From a virus (lineage: Duplodnaviria; Heunggongvirae; Uroviricota; Caudoviricetes), in IMG/VR virus record IMGVR_UViG_2671180435_000008: a stretch of DNA of 4,367 bases, one strand, 5' to 3'. Under the pieces are notes generated by a model. That model saw only the letters and a list, made by a program, of their open reading frames with translations. It searched no databases and was not told the origin of the DNA. Within the stretch, counting starts at the first letter, position 1. Every line of letters begins with the position of its first letter. Both the position numbers and the translations under genes were made by a program. Positions 1 to 4,367 of the stretch are shown piece by piece.

Positions 1-31
1 AAAACACTATCAATAAGTTGGAGTCATTACC
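1..31 (+). mobile_element. Terminal 31 bp of an IS1 copy (insB-proximal end); body of the element lies left of the window
   Basis: Positions 1-31 read AAAACACTATCAATAAGTTGGAGTCATTACC, which matches from memory the last 31 nt of canonical 768-bp IS1 ending in GTCATTACC. The insB reading frame terminates inside it (CAC TAT CAA TAA = KHYQ*, stop at 14-16). Perfect reverse complement of 4340-4367. Confidence 0.8.
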
Positions 32-515
32 TGCGCCCCCCTGTGGAATGTAGTAATAACGTTCCATAACGCGGGCACGCCATATTTCCAGATCCCGGTT
101 CGTCTGCCACAACAGGCACCCGGAGAAGACCATCGGCTGCGGTCACCGTCGCCGTCGTGGTAAAGGTCACCTGATTATCACGCTGGATCTGCGTTCCCGC
201 TGGCAATACCGGCGTCCCCTCTACGCCATCCCAGCGCACAAATCCCCGGGCTGCCACCGCTTCTTTTCGCGGGCAGCGTTTGATTCTGGCGTGCCGGTAC
301 AGCCAGTCTTCATCACACACGTCCGGTAACAGATTTCTGGCAAGATAATCGATATACCCGTACAACGTGTGTACGGCTGCAGCCTGTACACGGGCATACA
401 CTTCCGCATCCATACGACGAAGCAGCGTATCCTGCTCAAAGCGGGTTAATAAATCGCTCCGGATCATAGAAATAAGTTGCGGGAGGCCGGGGCGATAAAA
501 CTGACTGTCAGCCAT
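27..515 (-). pseudogene. Baseplate J-like protein (Mu gp47 family), N-terminal fragment truncated by IS1
   Basis: The 162-aa translation has an N-terminal pattern (LYGYIDYLA, PAGTQIQRD) that fits baseplate J/gp47 proteins, which are normally about 350 aa. The ORF runs from flanking DNA (position 32 onward) into the IS1 terminus, where the last codon and the TAA stop (27-29) are supplied by IS1. ATG at 515-513 overlaps the upstream gp46 stop by 8 bp; GGAG lies about 9 nt upstream. Confidence 0.65.
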
Positions 516-918
516 TCAGTTCACTCCAGATATCATCAAAAATAATGTTGTGAATATTGCCGTCACGCTGGTAAATGGTAATGGCAAGTGCCAGCGAGTC
601 TGTCCCGGTCCGGACAGCGTTAATATCAAGACGGGAAGCAACACCATCCTCCACCATCCACGCCAGCGCCTCACGGACATAATCTCTGGCAAGCTGCGGG
701 GTTTTATTTGTCAGCTTGCTGCGTCGCAACAGATACAAACGCGACCCCGTGCGATCATTCTGAACCGCAGGCCAGGTATCCCCCCACCATCCAAATATCC
801 GTGGTGCATCATCACGCCCGGCACGCCGCCATGTAAAAAGCGAAATAATCACAGCACGCGTCAGAAGGTCGATCGAAGCCCCGGTCGACACGGGTCGCCC
901 GTTAACATTAATCATCAT
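508..918 (-). CDS. Phage GP46-family baseplate protein (Mu gp46-like)
   Basis: 136-aa ORF of the size and synteny expected between gp45-like and gp47-like genes in Mu-type baseplate modules. Motifs such as SRLYLLRRSK and EALAWMVEDG resemble the GP46 family as remembered. Start lies 5 bp after the gp45-like stop; stop overlaps the gp47 start. Confidence 0.7.
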   Translation of the reverse strand: MMINVNGRPVSTGASIDLLTRAVIISLFTWRRAGRDDAPRIFGWWGDTWPAVQNDRTGSRLYLLRRSKLTNKTPQLARDYVREALAWMVEDGVASRLDINAVRTGTDSLALAITIYQRDGNIHNIIFDDIWSELNG

Positions 919-923
919 GATTT

Positions 924-1457
924 TCAGCCCATCGGTTGATCCGGCGTGTCAGTGATCCCGCCACCATCACCATTTTCGGTATGTTTGTGGGCATTGTAGG
1001 CCTGCCGCATTTGCTGCATGCTGAGTCCGCCACTGTCGCAATTGTCAGTAATATCGGCGGTGGATTCGACTGGCATTTCAAAGCGCGCTTTAGGCGCGTT
1101 TTTAAAAATTATGGCCTTCCCGGCCCCGTCCACCACAATACCGGAACGGGTCAGGACAACGGACTGTCCCAGATCGTCATAAAGCGCCACTTCCCCACGT
1201 TTCAGTCCTTTCAGCCGGTAACGTCTGTCAGCCACGACCACAACCACACCATGAGAACGATCGCCCGCCGGAAATAAAGCAACGCCCTCAGCACCGTTCT
1301 GTGCGGCAGATGTAAAACCATAAGGTTCAAGGTGCTCAACGTGTTGTTTCTGATCTCCGGCTATCATTTTCAACCCTACAGACTGACACTTTCTGGCGGA
1401 ATCCACCGCCGTGATGACAGCCCGGGAAATCAGATTACGAAGAGAAAACCCGTTCAT
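924..1457 (-). CDS. Baseplate assembly protein V-like (Mu gp45 family)
   Basis: 177-aa ORF with gpV/gp45-type features (SLRNLISRAVITAVD, HVEHLEPYGFTS, GEVALYDD). Strong Shine-Dalgarno GAGGAGGA at 1464-1471 (minus strand), 6 nt before the ATG at 1457. Lies downstream of the P-like hub gene as in Mu. Confidence 0.75.
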   Translation of the reverse strand: MNGFSLRNLISRAVITAVDSARKCQSVGLKMIAGDQKQHVEHLEPYGFTSAAQNGAEGVALFPAGDRSHGVVVVVADRRYRLKGLKRGEVALYDDLGQSVVLTRSGIVVDGAGKAIIFKNAPKARFEMPVESTADITDNCDSGGLSMQQMRQAYNAHKHTENGDGGGITDTPDQPMG

Positions 1458-2523
1458 CAGAAATCCTCCTCAACATTTTTTTCTTCCTGGCGGTAACAGG
1501 CTCGGGGAGATAAGCATCTGCCGGGCCAACCCGTAATTCAGTCGTCGTGCCCCGGTCGTCCTGGTTATAGGTAACTTCTGCGATCACCAGTTCATCATTA
1601 TCAAAATTATTCAGCGGGTCGAAAACGATGACAGATAACCCCGGACGCCATAACGCGCCACTGCCCTGCCGCCAGCCCTGAACCGTATATGTTGTCTCAC
1701 GGGTAAGCGCAGCCCGTTGGCGCGCTTCAAATTCACAACGGGCCTTACAGGTTGCTGTCGTTGCTGTGCCTGACTGCTGAATCAACAAAGGGCGATAACG
1801 GGTCACGCCACTGTCCTGAATGGTCTGACGTATTGCGGCAATGGTGGCCTCACCAAAATCATCGTCGTTGCCCGGGCGCTGCCCACTGACCTGATATTCA
1901 GAAAACCGCTCTCTGATGCTTCTTTCCGTGTCACAGGAAAGAATATTCTCTCCCAGCACCAGCACCAGCACCAGCGCCGTCGCCGCTTTACCTGTTCCGG
2001 GTTTTCCCAGAACCAGTCGCCCGCATTCATCGTCATAAGCCAGCGTCTGAACCTGCCCCAGTAACCGGTTAAGACAATCGGCAACGGTTTCGCCGTGTTC
2101 CGGCTGGGCATCAATCACCGCTGTCTGCGGCACGCCAGCATCAACAACGGTGATGCCAAATGGCGCAGCCAGTTCACTGACTATTCTGAGCAGGTTTTTT
2201 CCGCTCTGCTGGAGTGGCAAAGCAGAGCAGTCAACCAGATCGGCTGTTTTGCTTCGCCCGACAATTCCCATGCTGACGCTGCTGGCGTCATAACGAAGCG
2301 GTAGTGCCTCCACATATCCGGTGAGCACAGGCTCATCCCCGATAAGCACTTCAACCAGCTCACCATTTTTTATCCGGGGTTGATAATCCCGGCTTCCGGG
2401 CCAGCGGGTGGTAATGGCAACATTAAAATCCCGGGCAATACGGTTAATGCCCGCACTGATACGGACGGATGTCCAGCCGCCCCATTCGCGACCGGAAACC
2501 CGAAGTAAAACGGTATCATTCAT
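1435..2523 (-). CDS. Baseplate hub protein (Mu P/gp44-like, phage late control D family)
   Basis: 362-aa ORF whose size and position (immediately after the DNA circulation gene, ATGA start/stop overlap at 2520-2523) match Mu P. The C-terminal 23 bp overlap the gp45-like gene. Contains an in-frame hexanucleotide repeat encoding LVLVLVL. Confidence 0.75.
   Translation of the reverse strand: MNDTVLLRVSGREWGGWTSVRISAGINRIARDFNVAITTRWPGSRDYQPRIKNGELVEVLIGDEPVLTGYVEALPLRYDASSVSMGIVGRSKTADLVDCSALPLQQSGKNLLRIVSELAAPFGITVVDAGVPQTAVIDAQPEHGETVADCLNRLLGQVQTLAYDDECGRLVLGKPGTGKAATALVLVLVLGENILSCDTERSIRERFSEYQVSGQRPGNDDDFGEATIAAIRQTIQDSGVTRYRPLLIQQSGTATTATCKARCEFEARQRAALTRETTYTVQGWRQGSGALWRPGLSVIVFDPLNNFDNDELVIAEVTYNQDDRGTTTELRVGPADAYLPEPVTARKKKMLRRISDERVFSS
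1464..1471 (-). promoter_or_regulatory. Shine-Dalgarno sequence (GAGGAGGA) for the gp45-like gene
   Basis: Plus-strand tcctcctc at 1464-1471 is GAGGAGGA on the minus strand, 6 nt upstream of the ATG at 1457-1455. It sits within the 3' end of the upstream P-like CDS. Confidence 0.7.
1953..1975. repeat. Hexanucleotide tandem repeat (CCAGCA) x3.8 inside the P-like CDS
   Basis: Plus strand reads ccagca ccagca ccagca ccagc directly. On the minus strand it encodes (Leu-Val)n in the P-like frame; in another frame it produces the WCWCWCW run of spurious ORF 1803..2114. Confidence 0.9.
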
Positions 2524-3916: not shown

Positions 3917-3920
3917 CTCC
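3917..3920 (-). promoter_or_regulatory. Shine-Dalgarno (GGAG) for the DNA circulation gene
   Basis: Minus-strand sequence ATAGTGGAGACAGT precedes the ATG, putting GGAG 5 nt upstream of the start codon at 3911-3909. Confidence 0.55.
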
Positions 3921-3923
3921 ACT

Positions 3924-3950
3924 ATAAAAAAACCGCCAATTTCTGGCGGC
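3924..3950 (-). terminator. Rho-independent terminator downstream of the AT-rich ORF
   Basis: Minus strand reads GCCGCCAGAAATTGGCGGTTTTTTTAT: a 6-bp GC-rich stem (CCGCCA/TGGCGG, 3933-3938 pairing with 3944-3949), a 5-nt loop and a run of 7 T (plus-strand A tract 3926-3932). It sits 8 nt after the TAA stop of the AT-rich ORF and about 12 nt before the N start. Confidence 0.65.
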
Positions 3951-3957
3951 TTATATA

Positions 3958-4353
3958 TTAATCATCATTAATATCTTTCATATTCAATTTGCAATTTTCG
4001 TAGGTCACTCCCGACTCGCCATTAACATTAACTCCAGCTCTGATATTCCCGTTTTCTTTTACATCTACAAAAAACTGGCCTCTTGGCATCTTGAACGCAA
4101 ATGTAAAACCAACAGTATCTGAATCAAAATCATCATCTTTATATATTGGGATCAAAAATGTCATCGTCGCTGGTGATGCATTGTTTGCAAAATCAAATAC
4201 ACCTATACTTTTGCCGAATTCATAAGAAGCTTTTCTCAATATAATCGCACCGCTGGCAGAAGGGGATGGGCACGATATCCTCAGTTGTCTGAATCCATCT
4301 GTATCCAAGTCAACGTCATTATCTGCAGATGTTTTAACGGGTAATGACTCCAA
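3958..4353 (-). CDS. AT-rich hypothetical ORF of unknown function, probably a 5'-disrupted gene remnant next to IS1
   Basis: 131-codon ORF at about 36% GC, against about 57% for neighbouring phage genes. It has no ATG: the track start is a TTG that lies inside the IS1 terminus (4351-4353), and the first in-frame ATG would leave only about 68 codons. No family was recognised from the translation. It has its own intrinsic terminator. Confidence 0.35.
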   Translation of the reverse strand: MESLPVKTSADNDVDLDTDGFRQLRISCPSPSASGAIILRKASYEFGKSIGVFDFANNASPATMTFLIPIYKDDDFDSDTVGFTFAFKMPRGQFFVDVKENGNIRAGVNVNGESGVTYENCKLNMKDINDD

Positions 4354-4367
4354 CTTATTGATAGTGT
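4340..4367 (-). mobile_element. Terminal 28 bp of a second IS1 copy in inverted orientation; body lies right of the window
   Basis: Positions 4340-4367 read GGTAATGACTCCAACTTATTGATAGTGT, the exact reverse complement of window positions 4-31, i.e. the same IS1 insB-proximal terminus facing inward. Confidence 0.8.

Follow-up and report, generated by a model that had tools for sequence, protein, structure and literature searches.

A Mu-like baseplate segment with inverted IS1 tips is most likely the unique DNA between two independent IS1 insertions in a Shigella sonnei prophage remnant

In composite transposons of the Tn1681 and Tn9 type, two copies of the insertion sequence (IS) IS1 bracket a few kilobases of cargo, and in Tn1681 the flanking pair stands in inverted orientation. 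IS1 is also the most abundant IS in Shigella populations, where it makes up 42–59% of IS sites, and the median total number of IS copies per genome has been estimated at 194–286 in three Shigella populations (Hawkey et al. 2020, PMC7373316). The simple IS1 insertions of this Shigella IS expansion (PMC7373316) are ~768 bp long, carry insA and insB between a left and a right terminal inverted repeat (IRL and IRR), are flanked by a 9-bp duplication, disrupt genes and are fixed across the lineage. The stretch of DNA analysed here, hereafter the window (4367 nucleotides; viral record IMGVR_UViG_2671180435_000008), carries Mu-like baseplate genes and has an IS1 end at each tip. The original prediction took it for an IS1 composite element whose cargo might be flipped relative to the rest of the prophage or mobilisable as a unit. 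Our analysis indicates that the window is almost certainly a whole short-read contig from Shigella sonnei or a very close relative, made up of the unique DNA between two independent IS1 insertions in a defective phiP27-like prophage remnant. Both insertions share the properties of the simple Shigella insertions listed above and differ from them in nothing substantive; there are merely two copies, 4.4 kb apart and in opposite orientation, in one remnant.

An exact look-up of the 162-aa product encoded at one end of the window identified the window as the entire 4367-bp contig CXBX01000237.1 of GCA_001254035.1, with which it is identical end to end. This product, a gp47::IS1 fusion, had CXBX01000237.1 as its sole record in the exact protein look-up, which marks a 110-bp deletion within the window as private to this contig. 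A repeat search recovered the predicted perfect inverted repeat of 28 nt (100% complementary) and placed its exact arms at 4–31 and 4340–4367. The 28-mer GGTAATGACTCCAACTTATTGATAGTGT occurred exactly twice in the window, once per strand, and in 0/200 shuffles. The IS1-derived sequence itself comprises 1–31 on the left (31 nt, minus strand), which is three bases beyond the repeat, and 4340–4367 on the right (28 nt, plus strand). Both tips are insB-proximal IRR ends, the left one belonging to a copy in the baseplate gene gp47 and the right one to a copy in a low-GC orphan gene, and the contig stops within the repeat on either side. The repeat lies at the very ends of the window because the assembler stopped there, not because of any biological boundary, and the stall at these points is probably due to the high copy number of IS1. 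De Bruijn assemblers would be expected to halt a k-mer-sized distance inside such an element and so to produce contigs whose two tips carry corresponding IS1 sequence; the choice of the tips that correspond, and their orientation, would be set solely by the chance orientation of the two copies. The exact 463-aa N protein of the window was found in 3271 collection blocks, and in 3132 of these the longest contig carrying it was merely 2–5 kb long; for the exact 362-aa gp44 protein the same held in 1636 of 1699 blocks. The predominance of 2–5-kb contigs is as expected for a segment that repeats delimit in almost every short-read assembly of this lineage.

The sequence beyond the tips was examined in closed genomes drawn from exact look-ups of the N and gp44 proteins, the gp44 look-up serving to add closed genomes among which an inverted form might appear. 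This gave 17 distinct closed chromosomes of 4.57–4.88 Mb carrying identical proteins (L003–L012 and L014–L020; L013 is the same genome as L003), among them CP022672 (L009), S. sonnei strain 866. Genome counts refer to the matches listed, 13 and 16 similar places having been collapsed in the two look-ups. In 16 of the 17 closed genomes the window maps between two complete IS1 copies of ~768 bp, exactly at its two junctions, and the pair is inverted with the insB-proximal (IRR) ends inward and the IRL ends outward, the arrangement that had been predicted from the tips. In the orientation of the locus, the left IS1 of L003 (a region of CP104423) occupies 8805–9572 on the plus strand (768 bp) and adjoins window end 4340–4367 (L003 9545–9572), and the right IS1 occupies 13991–14759 on the minus strand and adjoins window end 1–31 (L003 13991–14021). 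Each copy has IRL (GGTGATGCTGCC...) at its outer and IRR at its inner end, with IRL 768 bp from IRR, and the consensus termini of IS1 (IRL GGTGATGCTGCCAACTTACTGAT... and IRR GGTAATGACTCCAACTTATTGAT...) were found exactly in the loci. The open reading frames (ORFs) of these elements match the Pfam families Zn_ribbon_InsA and HTH_Tnp_IS1 (insA) and DDE_Tnp_IS1 (insB), both genes being intact; the frameshift site TTAAAAAAC (A6C) lies at IS1 position ~305–313, and insB stops 15 bp from the inner terminus. Because the closed genomes show the same 28-mer ending a 768-bp insA/insB element, the 28-mer of the window is the insB-proximal end of IS1, as originally proposed. Base-by-base comparison in seven genomes found the two copies of a pair identical to each other (768/768) in six. 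As an observation on a single copy, the right IS1 of L003 (13991–14759) is 769 bp long and has A7 instead of A6 at the frameshift site TTAAAAAAC (~313), which would fuse the insA and insB frames; a 232-aa ORF was called there. A constitutive InsAB mutant was considered for this copy and set aside, as IS1 lengths vary among the other long-read assemblies (copies of 767, 769 and 770 bp), making a homopolymer sequencing error at least as likely as a real A7 mutant.

The target sites of the two copies show how the arrangement arose. The left IS1, in the orphan gene, is flanked on both sides by the 9-bp sequence CGTTAAAAC, and the right IS1, in gp47, by GGGGGCGCA, in every genome having them; GGGGGCGCA stands on both sides of the gp47 IS1 in 17/17 closed genomes and in a single copy at the empty site of the uninterrupted prophage of Escherichia coli FDAARGOS_944 (L001). 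Each element is accordingly surrounded by a direct 9-bp duplication, with one copy of it at each empty site. The inner members of the duplications lie in the window at 32–40 (TGCGCCCCC, the reverse complement of GGGGGCGCA) next to the gp47 IS1 and at 4331–4339 (GTTTTAACG, the reverse complement of CGTTAAAAC) next to the orphan-gene IS1. In silico excision of each IS1 together with one duplicate restored 120/120 identity with the prophage of FDAARGOS_944. The 9-bp duplications that the original prediction suggested seeking outside the pair were found, but as two separate sequences with none shared: the outer flanks CGTTAAAAC and GGGGGCGCA mismatch each other, and each equals the inner flank of its own IS1. 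Compound transposition would leave one duplication across both outer ends, whereas the outer flanks here differ. The locus contains two independent IS1 insertions and not a composite unit.

If the locus were a composite transposon of the Tn1681 or Tn9 kind, both IS1 copies and the 4.3-kb block would have arrived, or would move, as one unit. Two intact, sequence-identical IS1 copies with both outward IRL ends intact do formally give this architecture in the closed genomes (two flanking copies in 16 of the 17), and their inverted orientation is that of the pair flanking the cargo of Tn1681, yet the likeness is architectural only. Besides the missing shared outer duplication, in which the locus departs from both transposons, the cargo is native and collinear, forming one continuous sequence with the flanking DNA where the prophage is uninterrupted, and consists of inactivated structural phage genes rather than a selectable trait. 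No second location is known; the unit stands at one locus in the 17 closed genomes, and neither foreign cargo nor multiple locations were found. E. coli complete genomes hold the block without adjoining IS1 among the matches listed: when E. coli complete genomes (without Shigella) were searched with the whole window, 0 of the 30 best matches reached past 31–4339 into the IS1 ends, and the top match, the sole one inspected in context, was a prophage with no IS1 beside the block; the absence of the arrangement from these matches pointed to Shigella. A plasmid search with the window interior returned weak matches only (≤6% coverage) and no plasmid copy of the block, so that the predicted mobility as a unit found no counterpart among plasmids. 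As the origin of the arrangement, the composite reading is already largely refuted, and we regard it as extremely unlikely.

The region is collinear with the intact prophage of FDAARGOS_944, on one strand throughout, and the alignment blocks overlap by just the duplications. The order is sheath, tube, chaperone, tape measure, IS1, the 3′ part of the orphan gene, N, gp44, gp45, gp46, the first part of gp47, IS1, the remainder of gp47, gp48 and fibres. This bears on the suggestion that RecA-mediated recombination between the inverted IS1 copies flips the block and may have left it inverted in this strain. Identical 768-bp inverted repeats 4.4 kb apart are an adequate substrate for such recombination, the Introduction of PMC7373316 describes rearrangements mediated by homologous IS copies in Shigella, and the orientation would be invisible in a short-read contig. 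However, a marker check found the N gene and both outer flanks to share one strand in 17/17 closed genomes, the native orientation, in which the block is collinear with the tape-measure and gp47-C/gp48 genes on either side; among the matches listed, the search of related genomes for both orientations of 32–4339 thus returned the native one alone, and the predicted flip was not borne out. The ORF list and Pfam search of the block contained no invertase gene or other mark of programmed inversion, and with the flanked genes inactive already, it would make no evident difference which way the block lies. We consider inversion very unlikely. The composite-transposon and inversion readings are both formally possible but unsupported. 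It is likewise highly improbable that the block is still active, through low-frequency flipping or occasional compound transposition from the two intact outer IRL ends; neither event was captured in any closed genome or plasmid of the searched collections.

Could the terminal repeat be a pure artefact, such as chimeric ends or an adapter-like or scaffolding residue, with no genomic IS1 at these positions? The window is an unfinished draft contig, and an error of assembly may explain the private deletion of 110 bp close to one of its ends, but 16 independent closed genomes have full IS1 copies at precisely these two junctions, to the base, which leaves this explanation with practically no chance of being correct. 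The original prediction had itself named an assembly artefact as grounds for its rejection, and in part this applies: the bracketing of the window reflects a break of the assembly at a repeat, while real IS1 copies stand at the junctions in the 16 relatives. Several observations nevertheless weigh against our explanation of the window as the DNA between two fixed IS1 insertions. The window itself holds just 28–31 nt of IS1 per side, for which reason we infer the full copies in the exact isolate from its relatives; the full-length insA/insB elements expected beyond the ends were seen in 16 of the 17 closed genomes, and probably continue beyond both ends in this strain as well. The retained IS1 sequence is also unequal at the two tips (31 compared with 28 nt); repeat collapse during assembly may account for these overhangs too. 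Finally, the arrangement is not invariant, as strain 866 lacks the left IS1. At 8791–9986 of L009, the left IS1 and ~1.2 kb around it, including the orphan-gene remnant, have given way to an IS5-like element of 1196 bp that encodes a 326-aa DDE_Tnp_1 transposase, so the block is no longer bracketed by two IS1 copies in that strain. As this replacement shows, the locus is still decaying and is not conserved as a unit.

With two independent insertions as the preferred explanation, the course of events can be outlined. On this account, IS1 transposase cut a cryptic prophage at two distinct targets with a 9-bp stagger, placing two copies in opposite orientations in the tail/baseplate module of the remnant next to smpB, and both insertions became fixed in the S. 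sonnei lineage.

Pfam and PHROG searches showed that six ORFs, all on the minus strand, fill the interior of the window. As predicted, the block is a Mu-type baseplate module, with DNA_circ_N, GpP/gp44, Phage_Mu_Gp45, GP46 and Baseplate_J in order. The truncated baseplate J/gp47 gene (162-aa ORF, 27–515) contains the start of the Baseplate_J domain. Its residues 1–142 are native, and the fragment agrees with residues 1–145 of the intact 360-aa protein at 144/145 positions. The 110-bp deletion then shifts the reading frame, and the ORF continues into IS1; in the closed genomes the IS1 splits the 360-aa gene after codon 198. The deletion junction (91–93) has a 3-bp GAT microhomology, and the missing 110 bp (L003 13819–13928) are retained by 17/17 closed genomes as well as by the intact E. 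coli prophage; the gap may be a true deletion private to this contig or may have arisen in assembly. Then follow a gp46-like baseplate wedge protein (508–918, 136 aa; Pfam GP46, 4.5e-33; phrog_180), a gp45-like baseplate assembly protein V/spike (924–1457, 177 aa; Phage_Mu_Gp45, 2.1e-26), a gp44/GpP-like baseplate hub protein (1435–2523, 362 aa; four GpP/gp44 Pfam domains; phrog_177) and a gp43/N-like DNA circularization/baseplate hub protein (2520–3911, 463 aa; DNA_circ_N, 3e-36; phrog_184).

The gp44 gene shows two further peculiarities. In the S. sonnei copies its ORF overlaps the start of gp45 by 23 nt (1435–1457). The annotation of the E. coli relative terminates gp44 at the start codon of gp45 (351 aa), which gives the two proteins different C-termini. 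Within the gene, an in-frame hexanucleotide repeat (1953–1976, minus strand) consists of three perfect units of CTGGTG on the coding strand (Leu-Val). The number of units is one in the E. coli prophage, two to five in the S. sonnei closed genomes and three in the window, and through this variation the gp44 protein ranges from 360 to 366 aa. The repeat is a small variable-number tandem repeat (VNTR) in a dead gene.

The orphan gene is present in the window as its 3′ part (3958–4339, minus strand), which encodes residues 35–160 of 160 aa with 126/126 identity to the intact protein and is cut by IS1 after about codon 36. The ORF as called (131 aa, 3958–4353) has no Pfam match, and the gene matches phrog_5586 only, a family of unknown function. 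Its GC content is 36–38%, compared with ~55% elsewhere. The intact gene lies between the tape-measure and N genes of the FDAARGOS_944 prophage (L001 16030–16512, minus strand), and an intrinsic-terminator-like hairpin with a T-run (window 3930–3952, minus strand) is located just downstream of the gene. The gene looks like a moron, here cut by IS1. Judged by eye, the N-terminus of the intact protein resembles a lipoprotein signal (..AILTSC..).

In the closed genomes the prophage remnant sits between bamD and smpB. Its head module is reduced to a prohead-protease (Peptidase_S78) fragment between IS elements, and it carries IS4-family and IS3-family elements besides IS1. For strain 866, published work reports regions of phiP27-like prophage, and IS elements in the majority of the prophages. 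Over window positions 32–3915, the nucleotide identity with the Stx2e phage phiP27 (NC_003356/AJ298298) is 96.4%, and the DNA circularization/hub, baseplate hub, gp45, gp46 and baseplate wedge genes are shared. In contrast with phiP27, the S. sonnei copy is a remnant with IS insertions, no stx was found in the stretch of the remnant examined, and it has the extra orphan gene between the tape-measure and N genes; phiP27 is without this gene, and its coverage ends at window position ~3915. The module has the same gene order and Pfam families as gp43–gp47 (N, P, Q, V and W) of phage Mu. It differs in that the tail module alone is Mu-like, the related intact prophages having HK97-type heads, and in that gp47 is split by IS1. 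A domesticated tailocin, i.e. a head-less tail cluster, was also considered, but the IS1-split baseplate wedge gene led to its rejection for this lineage; with gp47 split and the head genes reduced to a fragment, neither a functional prophage nor a functional tailocin is present. As a separate observation, the uninterrupted relative in L001 adjoins a frameshifted ipaH (ipaHe) effector gene near zinT (L001 5496–7137), which suggests that FDAARGOS_944 is Shigella-like or an enteroinvasive E. coli (EIEC) and that ipaH is carried by this family of prophages.

The locus represents already-known biology and involves no new mechanism: a prophage remnant of Shigella has undergone IS-driven pseudogenisation, and a boundary effect of the assembly is superimposed on it. 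It serves mainly as a caution, as short draft contigs from IS-rich genomes such as those of Shigella routinely carry at their ends a k-mer-sized stretch of one and the same IS, and such tips yield perfect terminal inverted or direct repeats that mimic transposon architecture. For Shigella itself, the locus is a further instance of the well-documented IS-driven decay of its genome.

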